From an uncultured Candidatus Saccharibacteria bacterium (GTDB taxonomy: Bacteria > Patescibacteriota > WWE3 > UBA101185 > UBA10185): 64,000 nucleotides of DNA. Both the position numbers and the translations under genes were made by a program. Where the stretch lies: positions 355,508 through 419,507 of the forward strand of contig CAYLVW010000001.1 in the NCBI GenBank assembly GCA_964387275.1. The letters run 5' to 3'. The notes under the pieces were generated by a model. The model was given only the letters and a program-made list of their open reading frames with translations. It ran no database searches and had not been told where the DNA came from. Shown here in pieces: positions 2,086-60,098 of this stretch (positions are counted from its first letter, which is position 1; every line of letters begins with the position of its first letter).

Positions 2086-2730
2086 ATGAATGAAAAAATG
2101 ACAGGCGAACAAACAAATTTAGAGCCTTCCAAATCAAGACGATTTGTATCTATTAAAAATAGAAAGATATTAGTAGCACTAATGCTATTAGGTGCTTTTA
2201 TAGGATTCGCTTTTTATTATAAGGGTGTCTTTGTTGCGGCCACGGTAAATGGAAGTCCTGTAACTAGGCTAAGTGTAATAATGGAACTAGAAAAGCAAGG
2301 AGGGAAAAATACACTAGATGCCCTTATTACCGAGAAGCTAATTGATAATGAGGCTAGAAAGAAAGAAGTTGTTGTAACCAACGATGAGATTGATCAAGAA
2401 ATTAAAAAAATAGAAGCATCAATTACACAACAGGGCGGTACACTTAATGACGCGTTACTACAACAAGGTATGACTTTGGATTCATTGAAGAAACAATTGT
2501 CTGTTCAGAAAAAAATTGAGAAAGTTTTGTCCGATAAGATACAAGTAATTGACGACGATATTTCAAAATATATTTCAGACAATAAAATTGAATTAGAATC
2601 AGGTAAAGAAACTGAAACAAAAAACCAAATAGCCCAACAGCTAAAAGGACAAAAGCTAAATCAGGAAGCATCTTCGTGGATAAATTCACTCAAAGCTGGC
2701 GCCAAAATCAACTACTATGTAAATTATTGA
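2086..2730 (+). CDS. Membrane-anchored SurA-N-like periplasmic chaperone domain protein
   Basis: Start chosen at the MNEKMTGEQ ATG at 2086, which has an AAGGA RBS. The longer ORF from 1960 overlaps the upstream gene. One TM helix followed by a SurA N-terminal-like helical region (LIDNEARKKEVVVTNDEIDQEIKKIEA). Confidence 0.45.
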   Translation: MNEKMTGEQTNLEPSKSRRFVSIKNRKILVALMLLGAFIGFAFYYKGVFVAATVNGSPVTRLSVIMELEKQGGKNTLDALITEKLIDNEARKKEVVVTNDEIDQEIKKIEASITQQGGTLNDALLQQGMTLDSLKKQLSVQKKIEKVLSDKIQVIDDDISKYISDNKIELESGKETETKNQIAQQLKGQKLNQEASSWINSLKAGAKINYYVNY

Positions 2731-2765
2731 TCGTATATGCATAAGGCATGAAGTAAAATAGAAAT

Positions 2766-4667
2766 ATGCTTGTTTATGAATTACTAAAAAATACGAAATT
2801 TAAAAGGTTGGCTTTAACATTGCTTCTGGTTATTCCGTTTGAAGTATTGTCTCTTTTTTCGATTCATTTACCCCAGTTTATTGAGATAGCAGTTTTCAGT
2901 ATTATAATGCTTATCTTTGGTAAAAATGTAATTATTAACGGTCTAAGAAGCCTCATGCACCTAAATTTTTCTAATATAAATCTGCTAATGACAATTGCAG
3001 TATTTGGAGCTCTATATTTAGGGGAGTTAGAAGAGGCTGTTATTATTATTGTTCTTTTTGCCATAAGTGAGACATTAGAAGAGTTTGGTATTCGCAAAAG
3101 TCAAAACTCACTTGAGGAACTTGTTAAAAAAACTCCGAAAACGGCACTCATAAAAGGTCATGATGATAAAACACCTATTGAAAATATATCTGTCGGGGAG
3201 ATCCTTGTAGTAAAGCCAGGCGATTATATTCCTCTGGATTGTGTAGTTGTAGAAGGGAACTCATTAGTTGATGAGAGTACAATAACAGGCGAACCTTTAC
3301 CCAAAAGCAAATTTCCAGGTGAATTGGTATATGCAGGAACACTTAATACCCAGGGATATTTAGAAATCAGAGTTATCAAGGTTTCAAAAGATACTACTTT
3401 AGCTAAGATTGTGGAATTAACATTCCAATCTATAGAAAAAAAGTCACGTGCCACTAAATTTATTGAGAATTTTGCACTTTACTACACACCTACAATAATT
3501 GTCATTGCAACTTTACTAACAATAGTTCCTTTTTTTGTTTTCGGACAACCTTTTACTGTCTGGTTTACGCAAAGTCTTACAGTTCTGCTAATTGCGTGTC
3601 CTTGTGCTTTAGTCATTTCAACACCAATAACAATATTCTCTGCAATTGGGAATGCTACTAAAAGAGGCGCTTTAGTAAAAGGTGGTCAATTTTTAGAGGA
3701 AATGGGGAAAATAAGAGCCATAGCTTTTGATAAAACGAGAACCTTAACTAAAGGAGAGCCTCTCGTATCTGATATTGTTACTTTCGATGGGGTTTCAAAA
3801 GAAGAGCTGCTTAATTGTGTTGCCGGTGCTGAATCTCTTTCTGAACACCCTATTGCGAAAAGTATTGTTGAAAGAGCAAATACCGTAGATGGAGAAAATC
3901 ACTCATACTCAAACTTTAAATCCGTTATGGGTAAAGGTATTAGTGGGGAATGTTTAGTTTGCGTTGATAAACACCACTGCATAGGTACTTTGGAATACAT
4001 TATGGAAGAACATAAAGTTGACACCAAAGTAATAGAAATAGTTGAGAAATTTGAAAAAGAAGGTAAGACAGCGATTGTAATTAGTTCTAATAAGCACATT
4101 GAGGGAGTTATTGGTGTTACTGATACGATTAGAAGTGAAAGTAAACAAATTGTAATGGACTTAAATAAACTCGGAGTAACTTCCATCATGCTTACTGGAG
4201 ATAATGCGTCGGCAGCTGCGTATGTGTCAAAAGAAGTTGGTATTAGTGAGTTTTATGCCAAGCTTCTACCTGATGAGAAAGTTTCAAATTTATTAGAATT
4301 GGTCAGAAAATATAAAAATGTTGCGATGGTTGGAGATGGCGTGAATGATGCTCCTGCCCTTGCAACTGCTTCAGTCGGTATTGCAATGGGTGCTGTTGGA
4401 TCGGATGTAGCTATTGAAAACGCAGATATAGCATTGATGAACAATAATTTAAGCCTACTACCATTTTTGATTAGTCTTGGTAGAAAAGCTATAAGGACTA
4501 TTAAGTTAAACACTACTTTGGCAATTGGAGTAAAACTGTTTTTCCTATTTTTTGCGCTGATTGGAAAAGGTAATCTTGCCTTAGCCATATTTGCTGACGT
4601 TGGTGTTACTTTACTAGTAGTGGCAAATAGTTTGAAATTATTTAATTATGATATGGAAACAAAATAG
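2766..4667 (+). CDS. P1B-type heavy-metal translocating P-type ATPase (Cu+/Zn2+/Cd2+ type, CPC motif), without N-terminal HMA domain
   Basis: CPC in CPCALVIS of TM6, DKTRTLT phosphorylation motif, TGDN, and GDGVNDAPAL hinge. 633 aa. Confidence 0.85.
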   Translation: MLVYELLKNTKFKRLALTLLLVIPFEVLSLFSIHLPQFIEIAVFSIIMLIFGKNVIINGLRSLMHLNFSNINLLMTIAVFGALYLGELEEAVIIIVLFAISETLEEFGIRKSQNSLEELVKKTPKTALIKGHDDKTPIENISVGEILVVKPGDYIPLDCVVVEGNSLVDESTITGEPLPKSKFPGELVYAGTLNTQGYLEIRVIKVSKDTTLAKIVELTFQSIEKKSRATKFIENFALYYTPTIIVIATLLTIVPFFVFGQPFTVWFTQSLTVLLIACPCALVISTPITIFSAIGNATKRGALVKGGQFLEEMGKIRAIAFDKTRTLTKGEPLVSDIVTFDGVSKEELLNCVAGAESLSEHPIAKSIVERANTVDGENHSYSNFKSVMGKGISGECLVCVDKHHCIGTLEYIMEEHKVDTKVIEIVEKFEKEGKTAIVISSNKHIEGVIGVTDTIRSESKQIVMDLNKLGVTSIMLTGDNASAAAYVSKEVGISEFYAKLLPDEKVSNLLELVRKYKNVAMVGDGVNDAPALATASVGIAMGAVGSDVAIENADIALMNNNLSLLPFLISLGRKAIRTIKLNTTLAIGVKLFFLFFALIGKGNLALAIFADVGVTLLVVANSLKLFNYDMETK

Positions 4668-7341: not shown

Positions 7342-8622
7342 ATGGAACAAGAACTCAAATACTGCCTATATGCAAGAAAAAGCTCAGAATCAGACGAAAG
7401 GCAGGCAATGTCCATTGAGAGCCAGATCAAGGAAATGTCTGCAATTATCAAACGAGACAAGTTAAATGTAGTTGATATTAGGCAAGAAAGTCATTCCGCT
7501 AAGGTTTCTAGTGCTAGGCCCGTATTCAACCAATTAATCGATGATTTAAAGAAAGGTGAGTTTAACGCTATTTTAACTTGGGCACCAGATCGAATGTCAC
7601 GTAACGCAGGCGATTTAGGCTCTTTAGTCGACTTAATGGATAGTGGCAAACTTGCACAAATTAAAACGTATTCACAGGTTTTTACGAACAATCCAAACGA
7701 AAAGTTTTTATTAATGATACTTTGTTCACAGGCAAAACTGGAAAATGATAACAGAGGTTTAAACGTGAAACGTGGTATCAGAAACAAATGTGAATTGGGT
7801 TGGAGACCCTGCATGCCCCCGCTTGGATATCACAGTAGAGCTATAGATGGGGTAAAAGACATAGTTATTGATCCGATTCGTGGACCTTTAATAAAAGAGC
7901 TCTTTGAGCTAATAGCTTTAGTTGGTATGAGCGGAAGATCCGCAAGAAAGATGCTTTACAAAGAGAAAAACTTTAAGACCAGAAACGCTAAAGATATAAC
8001 TTTGAGTATGGTTTATAAAATTCTTCGCAACCCCTTTTATTATGGCCAATTTGAGTATCCAGTAGGAAGCGGTACTTGGTATAAAGGAAAACACGAACCA
8101 TTAATAACTAAAGAGATATTTGATAAGGTACAAGATCGTTTAGAAATCCCAGAAAAAGCGAAATGGAGATCGAAAAACTTTGCATTTACAAGAATGATTC
8201 ATTGTGGTGAATGTGGAACCATAATTGTCGCTGAGGAAAAATTTAGGAATCTTCTCGATGGAACGAAACGAAAGCATGTTTACTATCATTGTGGTAGACC
8301 AAAAGACGACAGGGAATGTCACCAACCATATCTATCCGAAGACGAATTAGTAAGTCAGCTTATCGAGATCGTGGATACTGTAAAACTTGATTCAAAGGAA
8401 ATGGGAAAGAAGATTAAGCAAGAGTTCGATAGGTATCAGACTTTCGGGAATTTAATCCTAGATGATCACTCTGAAAAAATGCCAGAGTTTAATCACACGA
8501 TTGATATTTCAACCTTTGCTAAACACATCCTAAAAGTAGGGTCTAGTGACGAAAAACGAGAAATCCTTAACCTGATGAAAACCAAGTTTCTATTGAAAGA
8601 TCGTCGAATTACACTTAGCTGA
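7342..8622 (+). CDS. Large serine recombinase (resolvase/invertase-type catalytic domain + recombinase domain + zinc ribbon)
   Basis: The N-terminal YARKSSESDERQAMSIESQ matches the serine-recombinase catalytic motif. A central recombinase domain is present, and CGECGT...HCGRP gives a zinc ribbon. Typical of phage or integrative-element integrases. Confidence 0.75.
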   Translation: MEQELKYCLYARKSSESDERQAMSIESQIKEMSAIIKRDKLNVVDIRQESHSAKVSSARPVFNQLIDDLKKGEFNAILTWAPDRMSRNAGDLGSLVDLMDSGKLAQIKTYSQVFTNNPNEKFLLMILCSQAKLENDNRGLNVKRGIRNKCELGWRPCMPPLGYHSRAIDGVKDIVIDPIRGPLIKELFELIALVGMSGRSARKMLYKEKNFKTRNAKDITLSMVYKILRNPFYYGQFEYPVGSGTWYKGKHEPLITKEIFDKVQDRLEIPEKAKWRSKNFAFTRMIHCGECGTIIVAEEKFRNLLDGTKRKHVYYHCGRPKDDRECHQPYLSEDELVSQLIEIVDTVKLDSKEMGKKIKQEFDRYQTFGNLILDDHSEKMPEFNHTIDISTFAKHILKVGSSDEKREILNLMKTKFLLKDRRITLS

Positions 8623-8668
8623 TTTCAACAATCTTGCAAATTAACAATATAGGCTTCATCATTAATTA

Positions 8669-9172
8669 ATGGGAAATTTATATGTAATTGTTGGTATCGT
8701 TCTTATCTTGGGAGTTGTACTTGGCTTATTATCTTCTAAATTTGGTGAAGATATTTCCGATAAAAAACGCCAATATAAGTATCAAAAGAAAGATTACCTA
8801 TTATCTCGTGCGGAACATCAGTTTTTTGATGTTTTAGTTGATGCATTAGGTGACCACTACTACGTCTTCCCTCAAATTCATTTAATTACTTTACTCGATC
8901 ACAAAATAAATGGACAGAATTGGAGAGGGGCTTTTAGGCATATTGACGAGAAGTCAGTAGATTTTGTGATTTGTGATAAAAGTTATATAAAACCATTAGT
9001 TGCAATAGAGCTGGATGATAAGTCTCATGGAACTGAGAATAGGATCGAAAGAGACGAAGAAGTAAAAAGGATTCTACAAGATGCAGGGGTACCCTTGTTA
9101 CGTTTCGAAAACCATGGAAGTTTTGATAAAGAAGAAATAAAAAATCGTATTATTAATGCTTTAGGAAAGTAA
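8669..9172 (+). CDS. DUF2726/NERD-like restriction-endonuclease-fold protein with N-terminal TM helix
   Basis: VDFVICD...IELDDKSHGTENRIERDEEV fits a D-(E/D)xK nuclease-like core, as seen in DUF2726 proteins. Confidence 0.35.
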   Translation: MGNLYVIVGIVLILGVVLGLLSSKFGEDISDKKRQYKYQKKDYLLSRAEHQFFDVLVDALGDHYYVFPQIHLITLLDHKINGQNWRGAFRHIDEKSVDFVICDKSYIKPLVAIELDDKSHGTENRIERDEEVKRILQDAGVPLLRFENHGSFDKEEIKNRIINALGK

Positions 9173-9376
9173 CTTCATAAAATTAGTAGCCATATAGCGA
9201 TAGAAAAGGCTGTGTAGAACACTGGTATTTGCCCTATACCCATACGGTCTAGAACCGGCACCCTCAATAAGACTATTTAATAAAAAAACGATGATAAATA
9301 AGGATAACCCATTACGGTCATCTGGAACATTGGGACTTGCCTATAACCACCTGAGTAGGGTGGAACAATGAGATTC

Positions 9377-43265: not shown

Positions 43266-44216
43266 ATGAACAAACCTCGTACATTCTGGAGCAGACTTAC
43301 CTATGCAATAGCTGATTTGACTATTTTTAATTTGATTGCAGCGTCAGTTTTCTACGCAGGAGCTGACGGATGGCTATTTGGATTAAAGATCGTCGTTTTC
43401 ATATCTGGTTTAGCTTATGGTTTTCTGGGATTCCTTATAACTTTGGACGATAAGAAAGATGTCCATGGTAACAAGATTGAGCAGACAGGGTGGGAAAGAT
43501 TTGGGTATTTAACTGTGACTATAGGATTTGCTCTTATGGCTATAGCATCCGTCGTAGTATTTGCCCCAATGTTAGTAACATATGCCAATCCGAGCGGTAC
43601 CATTGTAACTGCTATATCCGTACTAGTTGTGATCAGAAATATTCTAATTCTTGGGGGCTATTCTATTGTAGCAATTGAAGAGCTTAAAAGAGAAACATCT
43701 ACAGAAACTTTATCTGACTTGTGGAAAACACTCGATGCTAATAAGAATCAAAAACAGGGGTTTGCTTTTGTGGTTATATATGTAGTGGGAATTGCACTTT
43801 CTGTGGTTATTGCTATGGCTGCCAACTCTGAACAAAAACCTATGTATACAGGGGCTATGCCCAGATGGGAAGTTCTTTCTGAGGTAGACGAACCTAACAA
43901 CAGGAAGGTGGAGCTTGACGAAGGACTTGAGCTTGTTACTCCTGCCGGATACAGACTAACCGTATTGGATATCGGCGTTGGGAAATGCAATATTAGTGGA
44001 TATGGGGGTCTGGATACTAGACAAAAGGTATTTGTTATTGCAGCTCATAATCTGTATGGGAATTATACTGTTTCTACTATTTGTATTGATCCTGATGTTA
44101 TGGGAACTTACAGGGATGCAGAAAACACAATTACAGTAAGTCACGAGAGAGTGGCTTTTGACACAACTCGGCTTTATATTATGCTTGGTGATACCTGGTC
44201 CGTAGTCGAAAAGTAG
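43266..44216 (+). CDS. Membrane protein (4 TM) with C-terminal soluble beta-rich domain
   Basis: Hydropathy pattern. RBS GGAGATGGAGGG upstream. Confidence 0.35.
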   Translation: MNKPRTFWSRLTYAIADLTIFNLIAASVFYAGADGWLFGLKIVVFISGLAYGFLGFLITLDDKKDVHGNKIEQTGWERFGYLTVTIGFALMAIASVVVFAPMLVTYANPSGTIVTAISVLVVIRNILILGGYSIVAIEELKRETSTETLSDLWKTLDANKNQKQGFAFVVIYVVGIALSVVIAMAANSEQKPMYTGAMPRWEVLSEVDEPNNRKVELDEGLELVTPAGYRLTVLDIGVGKCNISGYGGLDTRQKVFVIAAHNLYGNYTVSTICIDPDVMGTYRDAENTITVSHERVAFDTTRLYIMLGDTWSVVEK

Positions 44217-44330
44217 CATTTAATGCACTTGAGATCTCACAAATTTCAAGTGCTTTTTTATACCATAAATAACCTATAATATTGTAATACTTGCTTAAAA
44301 ATGTTAAATTCTCAGTAGAGGGAGTGAAAA

Positions 44331-44636
44331 ATGCTCGATGTTTCCAGCTGGGACAACCTACCTATTACTGTAACAGGTGATAACGGTGTAGATACCAGAG
44401 GAAAAAGTGTAGTTGAACATAATAGATTGTATATACTCACAAGTATTGATTATGGAGACAATCCACAGCTTACAATTACGCATGCGGCTAGTAGAAAAAC
44501 ACACAGAGTTGCAACAAAAACTGTGAGGGTAAAAGATAAAGTAACACCTAAGCTTATTTTTAGGACTTCTAGAAATGCTATTTATTTTTATGAAGTAACT
44601 CAGGAGGTACTTTATCAAGCAGATGAGGGTGAGTAA
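44331..44636 (+). CDS. Small beta-rich hypothetical protein
   Basis: RBS GGGAGTGAAAAATG. Translationally coupled to the next ORF (TAATG overlap). Confidence 0.3.
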   Translation: MLDVSSWDNLPITVTGDNGVDTRGKSVVEHNRLYILTSIDYGDNPQLTITHAASRKTHRVATKTVRVKDKVTPKLIFRTSRNAIYFYEVTQEVLYQADEGE

Positions 44637-44965
44637 TGCCGAGGTATCCCAATAAGTTTCAATTAGGATATTGGCATAATAAACAAGTAACAGTTACCAG
44701 ATATAGAGATACCGGTATTTTCGAATTTAAAGCGGTCGTAGCTAACTTTAAGGGACAGTTGTACTTAGGTACTAAAACTACCCTTGCGAACTTAGGTACT
44801 TGGGTAACCTTAATAGACGCAAACAATAAGGAGATGTCGCTTGATGCTGTTTTAATGCCAAATGGCTCTGATGTATATCTAATTCAGGCAGCTGTAGAAC
44901 AAGACACTCTGGCAGGTATAAGGTTTTGGTTTAGGTTGGATCTGAATTTAGCGATTACTGTTTAA
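44636..44965 (+). CDS. Small beta-rich hypothetical protein
   Basis: Start overlaps the upstream stop. Followed by a terminator. Confidence 0.3.
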   Translation: MPRYPNKFQLGYWHNKQVTVTRYRDTGIFEFKAVVANFKGQLYLGTKTTLANLGTWVTLIDANNKEMSLDAVLMPNGSDVYLIQAAVEQDTLAGIRFWFRLDLNLAITV

Positions 44966-44975
44966 CAGTTCTTAA

Positions 44976-45018
44976 CTGGCCGACCTTTCTCAGGATGAGG
45001 AAATCGGCCATTTTTTTT
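44976..45018 (+). terminator. Rho-independent terminator
   Basis: TGGCCGA...TCGGCCA hairpin with an inner stem, followed by TTTTTTTT. Confidence 0.6.
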
Positions 45019-45026
45019 GATATAAT
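45018..45026 (+). promoter_or_regulatory. Extended -10 promoter element (TGaTATAAT) for tRNA-Lys
   Basis: TGATATAAT lies 16 nt upstream of the tRNA 5' end. Confidence 0.4.
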
Positions 45027-45042: not shown

Positions 45043-45117
45043 GGGGACGTAGCTCAGCGGTAGAGCAGGGGACTCTTAATCCCTTGGTCCTGGGTTCGAT
45101 TCCCAGCGTCCTCACCA
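45043..45117 (+). tRNA. tRNA-Lys (anticodon CUU), CCA encoded
   Basis: GGGGACG / TAGCTCAGCGGTAGAGCA / GGGGA-CTCTTAA-TCCCT / TGGTC / CTGGGTTCGATTCCCAG / CGTCCTC-A-CCA. Confidence 0.85.
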
Positions 45118-45264
45118 GCAAAGTTTCCATATTATTAGAAATATAACAATTTAGACTAAGGTTCATGTTAAACCAGATAAGTACTATTTATAGTAAACTG
45201 CATTTTACTCCAAGGGTTAGTATGATATATTCTTACTTAATCTAGCATAGAAAGGTGATTCGGA

Positions 45265-46284
45265 ATGAGACCGTCAAGTGGTATCGAAGCATTGAGGAAA
45301 GGGTTAGTTTTAGCTAAAGACCTTACCATCTTAGCCAGAAGCGTAATGAGTGGAGCTCCTTATTCAACGTGTCTGGAATTTACCAATCTTTGTCCCATTG
45401 GATGTAATTGTATCTGGAGACGGCGGGGTGTCCCGGAAAGTCAGATGACTGATGAGGAAGTTTTGACATTCCTATATGAGCAAAGAAAAGCAGGGGTGGT
45501 ACATATAGTTCTATCCGGCGGTGAACCGTATGTTCGTTCTAAGCTCTTAAAGAGAGTTTTGCGAGAGCGTATCGTAAAAGCATACTGGGTAGTAACTTCG
45601 GGTGTTATACCTATGCATACAGGTCTTGAAGGTGTAATGCATTTTGTATCAATAGATGGCTTGAACCAGACTCATGATACTGTACGTAAAAGCCCTGGAT
45701 TGTTTAATAAGCTGTGGCAAAATCTTACGCACGCGCGTGCTACTAGAGAATTTCCAGTTATGGCCCACATGACAATCAACCAATTGAACATGTTGGAGGT
45801 TGATGATGTTTGTAGACTGCTTACTGAAACAGATATTACTGATGGGTTAGTTTGTAGTACCTTTACACCATCAAAGGCTAATCAAGAAACTGGACTTGTC
45901 TTAACAGATAAGATGCGGGCTGACATTGTAGAAATGCTACTCCAAACCAAAATGAGGTTTGGGGAACGTTTAGTGATGTCTAAGGCAGCAATAGAGAGGC
46001 TACATCCAGACGCAACCGCACTCCAAACTCCACAAAACTGTCTGGTAGCAAAATACTCGCGTTGCTATAACTCCAAGGGAGAGAGAATCCCAATATGTGT
46101 AATTATGCAGGGTGAGTATGTTCAGCAAATCGATAAAAACGGAAAACCACAACAAGTTTTCGTCCAACATGTGGACTGTAAGGATTGCGGTACTATTGTT
46201 AACACTATGCTAAATTCAGCAGTTAATGGAATCTTGCCTGACCTAGAAACAATCTTTGGACTTGCACAAACATTAGCTGTCTAG
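45265..46284 (+). CDS. Radical SAM superfamily enzyme with non-canonical cluster motif (CPIGCNC, Cx3CxC) and C-terminal Cys-rich auxiliary (SPASM/twitch-like) region
   Basis: VLSGGEPYV (GGEP SAM-binding motif) and VSIDGLNQTHDTVRKSPGLFNKL, a MoaA/SPASM-like ribose motif. The C-terminus carries five more Cys (C...C...C...CKDCG). Confidence 0.55.
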   Translation: MRPSSGIEALRKGLVLAKDLTILARSVMSGAPYSTCLEFTNLCPIGCNCIWRRRGVPESQMTDEEVLTFLYEQRKAGVVHIVLSGGEPYVRSKLLKRVLRERIVKAYWVVTSGVIPMHTGLEGVMHFVSIDGLNQTHDTVRKSPGLFNKLWQNLTHARATREFPVMAHMTINQLNMLEVDDVCRLLTETDITDGLVCSTFTPSKANQETGLVLTDKMRADIVEMLLQTKMRFGERLVMSKAAIERLHPDATALQTPQNCLVAKYSRCYNSKGERIPICVIMQGEYVQQIDKNGKPQQVFVQHVDCKDCGTIVNTMLNSAVNGILPDLETIFGLAQTLAV

Positions 46285-46315
46285 GAAGCCTGACGATTAA
46301 AAAGTAACACCTACG

Positions 46316-46360
46316 TAAGTTCGTACGTACAAAAATTGTCGTACGAACTTTTTCTTTTAT
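46316..46360 (+). terminator. Rho-independent terminator
   Basis: Perfect 11-bp inverted repeat AAGTTCGTACG / CGTACGAACTT with a 12-nt loop, followed by TTTTCTTTTATT. Confidence 0.6.
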
Positions 46361-46588
46361 TAAAATCCCATTACTATGGTTTATTTACCTTTAAATAATA
46401 TTCGAACTATCAATCGGAAAAAATGTAAAACACTCTATTACAATATTTATACATGAGAAGTCTCTGTATTGTATACCTAAAATAACTACTACCAAGCAGA
46501 CTGTAATTCCTCAAACAAAATACCATTAAATATAACTAGTTTGATATTTGTGCAAAATTTTGTATTATATAGATAATTATAAATACAT

Positions 46589-47096: not shown

Positions 47097-48683
47097 ATGA
47101 AAAAATTAATAAAAATCTTTGTAATCATTGTAGTATTTATACTAATACCAGTTGTTTTATATCTTCTTACTAAAAACACTGCTATCAAAGATACCGAGCA
47201 TGCAAACACAACTGGGAGCAAAGTACAACCTCAAGAAATAGTTAATTTAAATAACGGAGATACATATTTAATAAACGCTAAGTTCATAGAAAAGGAGCTG
47301 AACGGTAATAAAGTCAGGATGCTAGGATATAATGGATCTATCCCTGGACCTTTAATCAAAGTAAAACAAGGTTCAGAAATTATTCTTGAGTTAAAAAATG
47401 AATTAGATGTACCAACAACACTACACTCTCACGGAGTTAGACTTGAAAACAAATATGATGGTGTTCCAAAAGTTACACAAGAAGAAATTAAACCCGGTGA
47501 AACTTTCAGCTATAAAGTTAAATTTCCAGACCAAGGTCTTTTCTGGTACCACCCACACATAAGAGAGGATTATACCCAAGAAATGGGACTCTATGGGAAT
47601 TTTTTAGTAGAGCCTAACAACAAAGAAGAGTGGAATCCTGTAAACTCCGAAAAAATACTGTTTGTAGACGACATTTCACTTACGCTAAATGGAATAGAAA
47701 CTTTTGATAACGAAACTGCAAATTATGTACTAATGGGTAGATTTGGAAACACTCTACTTGTAAATGGAGATACAAAATATTCTGATAATGTTAATTTTGG
47801 TGATGTTGTAAGGTACTACGCATCTAATTCAGCCAATACCCGGGTATTTAATCTATCAATCCAAGGAGCAAGAATAAAACTTGTTGGCTCAGATAATGGC
47901 AAATACGAGAAAGAAGAATTTGTGGAGTCTATTATCCTAGGACCATCAGAAAGAGTCATATTTGAAGTTTATTTTGATAAACCAGGCAACTACACACTAT
48001 TACATAATACTCCGGAAAAAGAGTATATATTAGGAGTTATCAGCGTCAGTGACAAAGTCACTGACGCAAACTATTCAAAAGAATTCTTTGAAATTAAATA
48101 CAATAAAGAGCTAACAGATTATAGAACTAATCTTTCAAACTACATAAATATTGCACCAGATAAATCAGTTGAGATATCTTTAGAAATGAAAAGTGCATCC
48201 GGAATGATGGGAGGGGAGGGTATGCATATGATGCCTGACGGGTCATTAATGGGAAATAATACTATGAATAGTGTACAAACCTACGGAAAAATTGAATGGG
48301 AGGACACCATGCCCATGATGAATGCTGCCTCTACAACCAAAACCGTAAAGTGGGAACTTATAGATACTATAACTGAAAAAACTAATCATGATATCAATTG
48401 GACTTTTAGCAAAGATGAACTAATTAAGTTAAGAATATTTAATAGTGATAAATCCCAACATCCCATGCAACACCCATTTCACATTCATGGTCAAAGGTTT
48501 ATTGTATTAGCAACAAACGGTGAACCAACAAGTAATTTAGCGTGGAAAGACTCTGCACTAATTCAAACTGGGGACACTGTAGATCTGCTTGTAGAAATGA
48601 CTAACCCAGGAACCTGGATGTTTCATTGTCACATACCCGAACATTTAGAAAGTGGAATGATGGGGAACTTTCAAGTCTTATAG
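47097..48683 (+). CDS. Multicopper oxidase (three-domain laccase/CueO-like) with Met-rich insert
   Basis: Copper ligand motifs HSHG, WYHPH, HPFHIHG and HCHIPEHLESGMM are all present. N-terminal TM/signal. Met-rich segment GMMGGEGMHMMPDGSLMGNNTMNS...MPMMN. Confidence 0.85.
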   Translation: MKKLIKIFVIIVVFILIPVVLYLLTKNTAIKDTEHANTTGSKVQPQEIVNLNNGDTYLINAKFIEKELNGNKVRMLGYNGSIPGPLIKVKQGSEIILELKNELDVPTTLHSHGVRLENKYDGVPKVTQEEIKPGETFSYKVKFPDQGLFWYHPHIREDYTQEMGLYGNFLVEPNNKEEWNPVNSEKILFVDDISLTLNGIETFDNETANYVLMGRFGNTLLVNGDTKYSDNVNFGDVVRYYASNSANTRVFNLSIQGARIKLVGSDNGKYEKEEFVESIILGPSERVIFEVYFDKPGNYTLLHNTPEKEYILGVISVSDKVTDANYSKEFFEIKYNKELTDYRTNLSNYINIAPDKSVEISLEMKSASGMMGGEGMHMMPDGSLMGNNTMNSVQTYGKIEWEDTMPMMNAASTTKTVKWELIDTITEKTNHDINWTFSKDELIKLRIFNSDKSQHPMQHPFHIHGQRFIVLATNGEPTSNLAWKDSALIQTGDTVDLLVEMTNPGTWMFHCHIPEHLESGMMGNFQVL

Positions 48684-58697: not shown

Positions 58698-60098
58698 TTA
58701 CTCTGCGCTAGAAAGGAAAAGGCTAAGATCCGGGATCAACACGCGATCCAAGACACCAATATCCTGACCAAACACAGACATAGCCGTATCTCTATCCGCA
58801 TACTTAAGCCTCATTGCAGCAAGGTAGTAACTAAGACCACTGCCTTTACCAGGCTCATAGGCATAGTAAAAACCCGTATTGTATTGCCCAGACCCCATAA
58901 CAGCAAGCAGATTGCTGGCAGTAACAACATTGTCGTAAGTAACATCACCAATGGTGACAAATCTTACACCACCGCCGTCACCAATATCAATAACGTCCTC
59001 GCTAGTGGACTGAGTAATACTTCCGATATCCCCAATACCATGAACAGCAAGAATGACGTCATCGTATGCACCACGCCTAAGACCTGCATACAAAGTAGCA
59101 GGGTTATCGGCATACTCTCTGGTACTCAGAAGGTCAGCGGTGACCTTATTATCAGTAAAGATATAAAGCGCACTACCCACCGGTGAAACCTTAGACGACA
59201 AAATCACCAAATAGTAAGTCTTGTCTCCAAGCAGCCAAGTAACATTGCTCAATGCACCATCACCAATGAAAGAGGTATTGGGCTGCCTGCCCCAAAAGTT
59301 CCTATACTCAAACATAATAGAGCCGTAAGCGTTTCCACCTTGGTACAACTTCATTCCGGTCTGCCGACCAATGAACTCTGAAAGTGAGTCCTGATCAACA
59401 CCCTTGAAGTTAGGCACAATATTAGTGCTCATGGCTGAAGACAGTAAGTCTCTTACCTGCACAGCAGGAGTACCGTTAGCTTCCCAGAAACCCCATTCCA
59501 AGTAGTCTCTTGGGAGGATACTCTCAAAATTCTCAGTCCAAATCGCATAGCCACCTAGATCCAACTCTCTTCGTCCAGGACCCCACTTCTCAACATATTG
59601 AATTTGAGTGAGTTTCAGAGTGTCCCCAACACGGTTGTAGATCAAAAAAACATTGGATCTATCAATAACATACCCAGTATAACCAGGACGAAGCTGGAAA
59701 AGACTCGCACTCTCAAACCGAGCGTTAATCATACCTGCGATATCATTCTCGTTAAAATCCTGATAATAAATGATATCCAGCTCGGAATTATCCCAAGCTC
59801 CCCATTTAACAGACTGCATAGTGCCTTTAACAAAAGTCGAGTCGGGATAAAAGACTGTCCCAACCTCAGTAGCTGTTTCACCAGCGCCGTCGCCATTTTC
59901 ACGATAAGCGACATCAAAAGTAGGTGAAGTAATAGACATAATCTGGCTATCACCAACCTTAAGCTGAGAAATAGTCATAATGTTCTTACCTCCAACAGGA
60001 GGAGGAACAGGAACGTTTCCCTCAACAAAAAGGCTACACGAGGTAAGAGTAAGGCTCAAAACGGTAGCAAACACTGCCTTCAAGCGATGTGATTTCAT
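58698..60098 (-). CDS. Large secreted lipoprotein-like hypothetical protein
   Basis: Signal peptide with lipobox-like LTSC. 466 aa. Confidence 0.4.
   Translation of the reverse strand: MKSHRLKAVFATVLSLTLTSCSLFVEGNVPVPPPVGGKNIMTISQLKVGDSQIMSITSPTFDVAYRENGDGAGETATEVGTVFYPDSTFVKGTMQSVKWGAWDNSELDIIYYQDFNENDIAGMINARFESASLFQLRPGYTGYVIDRSNVFLIYNRVGDTLKLTQIQYVEKWGPGRRELDLGGYAIWTENFESILPRDYLEWGFWEANGTPAVQVRDLLSSAMSTNIVPNFKGVDQDSLSEFIGRQTGMKLYQGGNAYGSIMFEYRNFWGRQPNTSFIGDGALSNVTWLLGDKTYYLVILSSKVSPVGSALYIFTDNKVTADLLSTREYADNPATLYAGLRRGAYDDVILAVHGIGDIGSITQSTSEDVIDIGDGGGVRFVTIGDVTYDNVVTASNLLAVMGSGQYNTGFYYAYEPGKGSGLSYYLAAMRLKYADRDTAMSVFGQDIGVLDRVLIPDLSLFLSSAE

Follow-up and report, generated by a model that had tools for sequence, protein, structure and literature searches.

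A divergent radical-SAM protein with a CX3CXC cluster loop in a Candidatus Saccharibacteria contig, and the rare clade to which it belongs

The DNA analysed in the current study, termed the window, is a stretch of 64,000 nt from an uncultured Candidatus Saccharibacteria bacterium (GCA_964387275.1, contig CAYLVW010000001.1, positions 355,508 to 419,507 of the forward strand). It carries on its forward strand an open reading frame (ORF; nt 45265–46284) that starts with ATG and encodes a protein of 339 aa, referred to below as the window protein. A first-pass annotation had described this ORF as a radical S-adenosylmethionine (SAM) enzyme of an atypical subfamily, with a cluster motif CPIGCNC, a further Cys 7 residues upstream, a GGEP motif and a ribose motif. 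The ORF and all of these motifs are present as described, and the atypical assignment has held, as the CX3CXC spacing occurs in every clade member found. Taken as a whole, the evidence makes it reasonably probable that the gene is a stand-alone, monocistronic unit for a twitch-type radical-SAM enzyme of the SPASM/twitch/MoaA-like structural group, and that this enzyme belongs to a rare, unnamed clade with a compressed CX3CXC loop, one auxiliary cluster and a substrate that is not encoded nearby.

A tRNA-Lys gene and a terminator had also been noted upstream of the ORF, and both are found there (Table 1). The spacer between tRNA-Lys and the ORF is 147 nt long, and the promoter match within it is a candidate only, because shuffled sequence is expected to contain just as many such sites as the region does. 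The hairpin and T8 run before the tRNA close an upstream two-gene unit (nt 44331–44965); the z-score of this hairpin is unexceptional and it is absent from the list produced by a strict terminator scan. The spacer downstream of the gene (nt 46285–46588) is AT-rich, as previously stated, with a GC content of 0.29. An Rfam scan and folding of the flanking spacers revealed no riboswitch, no Rfam family besides the tRNA and no unusually stable structure.

Radical-SAM enzymes are recognised by the signature CX3CX2C. The window protein lacks this canonical motif (CX3CXphiC) after strand beta1, having only one residue in the second spacer, while the GGE and beta4 ribose motifs are present. Comparison with SkfB (PDB 6EFN) shows that the ribose motif VSIDGLNQTHDTVRKSPGLFNKL (equivalent to VSIDGLNQTHDTVRKSPGLF) aligns residue-for-residue with ISIDGMDNTHDQLRGRKGGF, that the beta4 motif from S129 to R141 aligns with SIDGMDNTHDQLR, and that the CX3CXC loop aligns with CNLSCSFC of SkfB across a one-residue gap. 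The upstream Cys, C36, was considered as an alternative third ligand and rejected, as it is not conserved.

No family in Pfam, NCBIfam, PADLOC or PHROGs reached its cutoff for the window protein. In NCBIfam, 35 radical-SAM, SPASM and twitch families match it, all far under their cutoffs. The top match is the PTO1314 family (TIGR03961; 53.4 bits over residues 43–239, cutoff 306), itself a hypothetical equivalog, and other scores against cutoff are 52/300 for SkfB (TIGR04403), 37/515 for NirJ, 31.5/225 for HpnH, 30/381 for PqqE, 30/400 for BlsE and 23/231 for MoaA. ScmE is also among the best matches, and the equivalog cutoffs of PapB, MftC and AhbC/D are likewise unreached. Membership of a well-known housekeeping family of the MoaA, PqqE or QueE kind, which the first-pass annotation had allowed for as a way in which it might be wrong, is thus not borne out by a best score of 53 bits against 306. 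In a sequence search of the PDB, SkfB ranked first, at E 6e-11 when the single sequence was used and 2e-14 when the clade profile was used, and BlsE and PqqE came next. An AlphaFold2 (AF2) model built from a 62-sequence family alignment has a mean predicted local distance difference test (pLDDT) score of 92.7 and a predicted template modelling (TM) score, pTM, of 0.90. It comprises an N-terminal helix (residues 6–29), the strand/helix alternation of a partial TIM barrel and, at the C-terminus, a module rich in beta strands with helices after it. Foldseek returned 82 radical-SAM matches in the PDB at E ≤ 1e-3, with SkfB first (E 4.9e-12, TM 0.58), followed by viperins, BlsE, CteB, SuiB, PqqE and MoaA. 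The model and these matches agree in giving the protein a radical-SAM fold; judged on the model, the matches represent generic similarity of the core, with no specific functional twin among them.

A word-indexed search of 5.8 billion proteins recovered only four relatives (31–37% identity), all with CP[IL]xCxCYW. An exhaustive profile search of 1.84 billion representatives gave 75 proteins at E ≤ 1e-30 and 584 at E ≤ 1e-10, and a motif census of these proteins confined CX3CXC to the top-scoring group; the next-ranked relatives (P0015, P0017, P0024, P0027 and beyond) carry the canonical CNLxCxHC. Some 40 further loci were contributed by GTDB genomes and JGI metagenomes. When the 45 loci were grouped at an enzyme identity of at least 85%, 31 non-redundant groups resulted, and all 31 carry CP[IVLN]xCxC[YI]W, so that CX3CXC is found in every clade member, whether counted as 15 aligned proteins, 45 loci or 31 groups. 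The hosts include members of the candidate phyla radiation (CPR; Saccharibacteria, Yanofskybacteria, Paceibacterota), one Nanoarchaeota metagenome-assembled genome (MAG), Acidobacteriota and 'proteobacterium' MAGs, and other metagenomes, on contigs with GC contents from 0.35 to 0.66. A sequencing error or frameshift in the motif, the other circumstance thought capable of undoing the first-pass annotation, is rejected because the same spacing is conserved in all relatives. Across the 15 aligned clade members, C43, P44, C47, C49, W51, GGEP, S129, D131, G132, H137 and R141 are invariant, as are H168, N172, N175, S198, T201 and the four C-terminal residues C259, C278, C305 and C308; the three loop Cys and these four C-terminal Cys are invariant across 62 sequences of the wider family. 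The ratio of nonsynonymous to synonymous substitution rates (dN/dS) of unsaturated intact pairs is 0.07–0.25, indicating purifying selection.

The positions that separate the variant clade from its canonical sisters cluster in SAM-pocket elements. Relative to the sisters, the clade has Pro for Asn at position 44, Ile for Leu at 45, Gly for Arg or Lys at 46, Arg for an aromatic residue at 52, Tyr for Leu or Met at 89, Val for Leu at 90, Ser for Asn at 112 (TNG to TSG) and His for Phe or Tyr at 126. Because these systematic differences are clustered in this way, the deletion appears to sit within a coordinated remodelling of the pocket, which is the expectation for a site that is still functional. 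In a neighbour-joining (NJ) bootstrap tree, support is below 50% and three canonical proteins (P0015, P0017 and P0024) are scattered among the variants; the tree is thus compatible with one origin of the deletion as well as with several.

In solved enzymes, the residue before the third Cys of the canonical motif contacts SAM, and this position has been removed in the window clade, where a single residue remains in the second spacer. Other non-canonical motifs are known among radical-SAM enzymes, namely CX5CX2C in HmdB, CX14CX2C in QueE, CX2CX4C in ThiC, and that of PhnJ; the motifs of ThiC and PhnJ differ and are C-terminal (PMC4389238). All four are precedents for a variable spacing of the three Cys with retention of radical-SAM chemistry, but in HmdB and QueE the first spacer is lengthened and the terminal CX2C kept, whereas in the window clade it is the second spacer that is cut. 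Ligation of an Fe-S (iron-sulfur) cluster by CXC has a structural precedent at the auxiliary site of SkfB (PMC6231123). The open-access literature searched yielded no description of a radical-SAM enzyme with CX3CXC, though one may exist elsewhere.

Five additional Cys had been counted in the last 70 residues of the protein. All five are present (C259, C267, C278, C305 and C308), but they span the last 81 residues. The family-wide pattern is C259-x18-C278-x7-C305-x2-C308-G-C310, with a nearly invariant G272 between the first two Cys; the last motif reads CxxCGC in relatives and CKDCGT in the window protein. The window protein is the most diverged member of its clade: it is 27–38% identical to other members, which mostly share 55–60%, and has Cys267 where all others have Ser. 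SPASM domains (PF13186, TIGR04085) have 7–8 conserved C-terminal Cys and two auxiliary clusters (PMC10452713), and twitch domains are truncated SPASM domains in which a beta-hairpin is followed by a helix and 3–4 Cys bind one auxiliary cluster (PMC10452713, PMC6231123). Of the twitch ligands, one precedes the hairpin, one follows it and two come further on, these forming a CXC pair in SkfB (PMC6231123). With four conserved C-terminal Cys in the window protein and five in its relatives, the SPASM count of 7–8 is not reached, and PF13186 (SPASM) matched neither the window protein nor any of 9 relatives. The twitch pattern is found in full, C259-x18-C278 surrounding a predicted strand (residues 265–268) and G272, with C305-x2-C308 and a helix (residues 311–320) to follow, although the score of 31 bits against the NCBIfam family N_Twi_rSAM falls short of its cutoff of 170. 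Of the earlier suggestion of a SPASM- or twitch-like C-terminus, the auxiliary-cluster-like character and the twitch assignment (4–5 Cys) therefore stand, and the SPASM assignment does not. The C-terminus fits a one-cluster twitch domain, in which cluster binding is predicted from the sequence.

Table 1. Features of the radical-SAM gene and its flanks, with coordinates in the window
Feature	Coordinates (nt)	Strand	Basis
Intrinsic-terminator-like hairpin with T8 run, before tRNA-Lys	44977..45019	+	Sequence; fold -18.4 kcal/mol, z -1.3
tRNA-Lys, anticodon CTT	45043..45117	+	ARAGORN; Rfam tRNA 72.6 bits
Weak sigma-70-like promoter candidate, TTTACT-16-TATATT with extended TG	45204..45231	+	9/12 matches
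Shine-Dalgarno AAGGTG, 7 nt before ATG	45252..45257	+	Direct sequence reading
Coding sequence, radical-SAM-fold enzyme, divergent member of the CX3CXC clade	45265..46284	+	ORF, homologs, PDB similarity, AF2 model
Cluster-binding loop C43-P-I-G-C47-N-C49 (CX3CXC), presumed ligands of the SAM-binding [4Fe-4S] cluster	45391..45411	+	Invariance; SkfB alignment
GGEP, residues 85–88 (within VLSGGEPYV), 'GGE' motif for the SAM amino group, followed by clade-specific Y89-V90	45517..45528	+	G85, G86, E87, P88 invariant
Strand beta4 motif S129-I-D131-G132…H137-D-x-x-R141, ribose signature of SPASM/twitch/MoaA type	45649..45687	+	S129, D131, G132, H137, R141 invariant
Twitch-like auxiliary-cluster region: C259 before hairpin, C278 after, C305-x-x-C308	46039..46188	+	C259, C278, C305, C308 invariant (n=62)
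19-residue insertion Q282–V300, only in the window protein, predicted extra beta-hairpin between C278 and C305	46108..46164	+	Gaps in all relatives; AF2 strands 283–289, 295–301
Terminator-like hairpin (AGUUCGUACG…CGUACGAACU) with U-run, ending the radical-SAM gene	46317..46359	+	Fold -16.9 kcal/mol, z = -2.6
26-codon ORF, unsupported as gene or precursor	46376..46456	+	Past terminator; best tblastn E 0.17 in flanks of 30 other loci

The canonical sisters (P0015, P0017, P0024) share with the clade a length of about 300 aa, the domain order and the C…C…CxxCGC signature, and are 24–35% identical to the window protein, with E values of 1e-64 to 1e-87 against the clade profile. They differ in the CX3CX2C loop, GGEP-L/M and TNG; they reach no NCBIfam cutoff, and none of the curated Pfam or NCBIfam families claims them. 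Six more distant canonical relatives carry fused signalling or kinase domains (P0145, P0149, P0150, P0151, P0127, P0114): a PilZ domain (a cyclic di-GMP receptor) before the radical-SAM domain in four, a receiver domain before it in one, and an ABC1/UbiB-type kinase after it in one. None of the fusion proteins of the wider family carries a RiPP recognition element (RRE; RiPP, ribosomally synthesised and post-translationally modified peptide), and no paper on a PilZ-radical-SAM enzyme was found in the literature searched. These proteins say little about the CX3CXC clade because their C-terminal Cys pattern differs. The canonical relative P0042 (GCA_964373165.1, locus L058, nt 3459–4394) is encoded within a SUF Fe-S assembly operon, in the order sufS, sufD, a 134-aa ORF, the radical-SAM gene, an intein-containing sufB and sufC. 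Another follows the gene for an 871-aa protein, and the contexts of canonical relatives are otherwise short or heterogeneous.

SkfB, the best match by both sequence and fold, shares with the window protein a partial (beta/alpha)6 barrel, the GGE motif, SIDG…THD..R, and a one-cluster twitch domain with Cys flanking a beta-hairpin and a C-terminal Cys pair, a pair that includes CXC. It differs in its canonical CX3CXphiC (C117, C121, C124) as opposed to CX3CXC, in an N-terminal RRE of about 105 residues, and in its location within the skf operon beside the precursor SkfA; the window protein has neither an RRE nor a precursor. Since SkfB is a sactisynthase and provides the closest solved structure as well as one of the best NCBIfam matches, and since many SPASM/twitch enzymes are RiPP maturases, it could be argued that the window protein modifies a RiPP precursor whose gene lies elsewhere or has diverged beyond recognition. 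One relative, at locus L002, adjoins a divergent 49-aa ORF and an ABC exporter, although this arrangement is repeated in no other locus. We consider a RiPP maturase unlikely. Only residues 1–33, forming a helix of some 30 residues, precede beta1, and the alignment with SkfB begins at about SkfB residue 100, past its RRE; scores against RiPP-maturase equivalogs do not exceed 53 bits against cutoffs of 300–850; and the neighbours are a housekeeping miscellany. Among small ORFs (20–90 aa) within 700 bp of the enzyme in the 31 non-redundant loci, none is conserved, and the matches found are shadow frames of neighbouring genes. The small ORFs of the window have no counterpart near relatives (best E 0.08–0.9). 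The first-pass annotation had proposed a peptide- or cofactor-modifying maturase and, while naming no precursor with confidence, had mentioned the 26-codon ORF of the downstream spacer and the two coupled small proteins at nt 44331–44965. The ORF does exist in the spacer, but it and the two proteins are without counterparts near relatives, and the proteins contain no Cys; the peptide-maturase part of the proposal is not sustained.

Between tRNA-Arg and the multicopper oxidase, the neighbours of the gene in the window are mostly unannotatable, as had been reported. An all-against-all BLAST of neighbours across the 31 non-redundant loci showed no gene that recurs beside the enzyme family-wide, and the co-occurrence with neighbours suggested as a check on the first-pass annotation has accordingly yielded no partner. 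The window neighbours themselves (264-aa, DUF4177, 316-, 101- and 109-aa, and AHSA1-like) do not recur next to any further member of the family. When 84 neighbours of relatives were scanned with Pfam, the result was likewise a housekeeping miscellany, with no theme and no sign of a defence island. The repeats that do occur are a block of rsmI, methionyl-tRNA synthetase (MetRS)-like and TatD genes together with leucyl-tRNA synthetase (LeuRS) in close CPR loci, patatin in 3 groups and a RapZ C-terminal domain in 2. Genes for MetRS-like and TatD-like proteins precede the enzyme in L008 (nt 8502–9347), L010 (nt 2660–3484) and L017 (nt 8212–8997); in L010 the enzyme directly follows the TatD-like gene, while a RapZ-C-like ORF intervenes in L008 and a patatin-like ORF in L017. 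This arrangement looks like inherited synteny of close relatives rather than a functional link, because none of the other 28 groups has it. The LeuRS of the window is 42–45% identical to the LeuRS of CPR loci.

Such neighbours invite the suggestion that the enzyme modifies a component of the translation apparatus, either a protein or an RNA such as tRNA or rRNA. There would then be a reason why a stand-alone gene is kept in the tiny genomes of CPR and DPANN (Diapherotrites, Parvarchaeota, Aenigmarchaeota, Nanoarchaeota and Nanohaloarchaeota) lineages; in the window it comes immediately after tRNA-Lys, with which it may be co-transcribed, and elsewhere the neighbours include MetRS, LeuRS, alanyl-tRNA synthetase, a class II aminoacyl-tRNA synthetase (aaRS), Dus, L20 and the RapZ C-terminal domain. 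However, an aaRS lies within 3 kb in about 6 of the 31 loci, which by a rough, uncomputed estimate is close to chance in genomes of about 800 genes in which translation genes abound, and the aaRS/TatD block is limited to close CPR loci, the enzymes of which are 59–81% identical. No RNA-binding domain (TRAM, THUMP or PUA) was detected in the Pfam scan, similarity to RlmN, MiaB and TYW1 is at noise apart from a generic fold match to TYW1 (TM 0.39), and a sporadic distribution with frequent pseudogenes is a poor fit to a core function. A role in translation is therefore held to be improbable.

The ORFs at nt 44331–44636 and 44636–44965 (101 and 109 aa) are translationally coupled, the ATG of the second overlapping the stop of the first, and are followed by a terminator; their products have no Pfam, PHROG or PADLOC match. 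Further upstream (nt 43266–44216) is a 316-aa ORF of mildly raised GC content (0.40), the product of which is hydrophobic and membrane-like in its N-terminal half and soluble in its C-terminal half; its only family similarity, to DUF6077, is sub-threshold, and it ends in a clear terminator at nt 44225–44253. The region had been regarded as an accessory patch, and composition lends this weak support: the radical-SAM gene has a GC content of 0.42 against a mean of 0.36 (z = 2.0) and deviates mildly in GC at third codon positions (GC3 z = 1.4). The strongest compositional outlier in the window is a 466-aa ORF on the opposite strand (nt 58698–60098; GC 0.446, z = 3.0; GC3 z = 2.7), which exceeds the radical-SAM gene. 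The 3' end of tRNA-Lys is repeated nowhere in the window, so there is no att-site signature, and an integrated mobile element was rejected, there being no att-like repeats, no notable direct repeats and no integrase, and a composition that is only mildly deviant. A phage origin was rejected as well, as IMG/VR holds no relatives and BFVD gives only generic matches to phage radical-SAM folds. In a Nanoarchaeota MAG (L012, nt 2106–2267; identical in L030), 414 nt downstream of the enzyme, lies a 54-residue remnant that is 61% identical to the copper-binding C-terminus (HCHxxxH…M) of the window multicopper oxidase (nt 47097–48683). The intact oxidase gene sits two genes downstream of the enzyme in the window, and the remnant is seen in no other locus; it is either fortuitous, the motif being highly conserved, or a vestige of a former linkage between enzyme and oxidase.

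Under the reading favoured here, that of a stand-alone twitch-type enzyme, C43, C47 and C49 would hold the SAM-binding [4Fe-4S] cluster through the compressed loop, as their invariance and alignment with the SkfB ligands suggest. The residue lost before the third Cys may be compensated by the changes of CN-L-R/K-C to CP-I-G-C, GGEP-L/M to GGEP-Y, TNG to TSG and F/Y126 to His; that these co-vary with the shortened loop is observed, and the compensatory role is presumed. From what is known of the superfamily, SAM would be bound by GGEP, S129/D131 and later barrel motifs, and its reductive cleavage would give a 5'-deoxyadenosyl radical that abstracts a hydrogen from the substrate. The single auxiliary Fe-S cluster, predicted to lie on C259, C278, C305 and C308, might act as an electron conduit or as a substrate anchor. 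With no RRE, no conserved precursor ORF and no conserved partner gene, the substrate is likely not encoded next door but would be something that the cell already has. We would guess at a sugar, nucleotide-sugar, nucleotide, lipid or other small molecule that is processed in the manner of BtrN or BlsE, and this is the least certain step; the preference follows from the same three absences together with a weak but consistent similarity to BlsE, which is the second or third best PDB match by sequence and fold. Twitch enzymes of the BtrN, BlsE and DesII type are also stand-alone proteins of about 250–360 aa without an RRE and with a single auxiliary cluster. The auxiliary cluster of BtrN is fully ligated, by four Cys that flank the hairpin on both sides and include a CxxC (PMC6231123). 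These enzymes differ from the window protein, to which they are 18% identical, in their canonical CX3CX2C and in their location within antibiotic biosynthetic clusters, of which there is none around the window gene.

Several observations weigh against the enzyme as just described. The small-molecule guess is built on negative results and the weak likeness to BlsE. The one-residue deletion in the loop could hamper SAM cleavage or change it. Against Pfam PF04055 (Radical_SAM), the window protein reaches 23.0 bits, below the gathering threshold of 29.5; among the relatives, P0009 (32.1 bits) and the sisters P0015 and P0017 (41–42 bits) pass, while P0002, P0003 and P0013 fail. The nearly invariant C310 is replaced by Thr in the window protein, and its private insertion of 19 residues falls in the auxiliary-cluster region, so this copy could be functionally compromised. 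About 6 of the 31 lineages carry disrupted copies: in L009 (10241) a TGG to TGA change at the conserved Trp108, in L036 (10226) a deletion and a stop after GGEP, and in L041, L045, L046 and L047 frameshifts. These fit either a dispensable accessory gene or long-read assembly errors.

From some of these observations it might be concluded that the family consists of degenerate, non-radical Fe-S 'pseudo-SAM' proteins with a structural, redox or regulatory role, or that the window copy is decaying. The window protein stands on the longest branch of the clade in the NJ tree and has Ile for the conserved Tyr50, and an NCBIfam pseudo-SAM/SPASM family matches it weakly (21 bits). Against this, the loop Cys, GGEP, S129/D131 and other SAM positions are invariant and under the purifying selection described above, as a working SAM site predicts, and the changes in the SAM pocket are coordinated rather than random. 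The window ORF is intact, with a ribosome-binding site and terminator, and retains every clade-invariant residue and most of the clade-specific ones. A pseudo-SAM protein is accordingly judged to be about as doubtful as a translation enzyme. A horizontally transferred, viperin-like antiviral enzyme that makes a chain-terminating nucleotide, for which one might cite the viperins among the best fold matches (target-normalised TM 0.55–0.65), the pVip scores of P0015 (33.9 bits) and P0009 (20.3 bits), the 51 bits of P0029 against viperin_w_prok and the patchy distribution of the family across bacteria and archaea, is very improbable, given that the window protein has no PADLOC match, that the scores of its relatives are far under the 180-bit cutoff, that the C-terminal Cys are invariant in this family whereas viperins are not known to carry an auxiliary-cluster domain, that no defence genes were found among the window neighbours or the 84 neighbours of relatives, and that no viral homologs were found in IMG/VR.

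A bolder extension of the stand-alone twitch enzyme, to which we give a slim chance only, is that the compressed loop and the pocket of GGEP-Y, TSG and H126 reposition SAM on the unique iron and so permit a non-canonical SAM chemistry, in which either another C-S bond is broken, as happens in Dph2, or some new reaction takes place, making the clade a mechanistically distinct subclass. If true, such a subclass would be spread mainly in CPR and DPANN episymbionts and in soil and groundwater bacteria. The physiological importance of the gene is probably niche, because it is sporadic and often pseudogenised. Annotation based on motifs and hidden Markov models misses proteins of this kind, the window protein and several of its relatives lying under the Pfam threshold and being unnamed in any source. 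The clade would widen the range of spacings that the cluster loop is known to tolerate, in a pocket remodelled under purifying selection, and the existence of related sisters with and without the extra residue amounts to a natural experiment on how loop geometry bears on the binding and cleavage of SAM.

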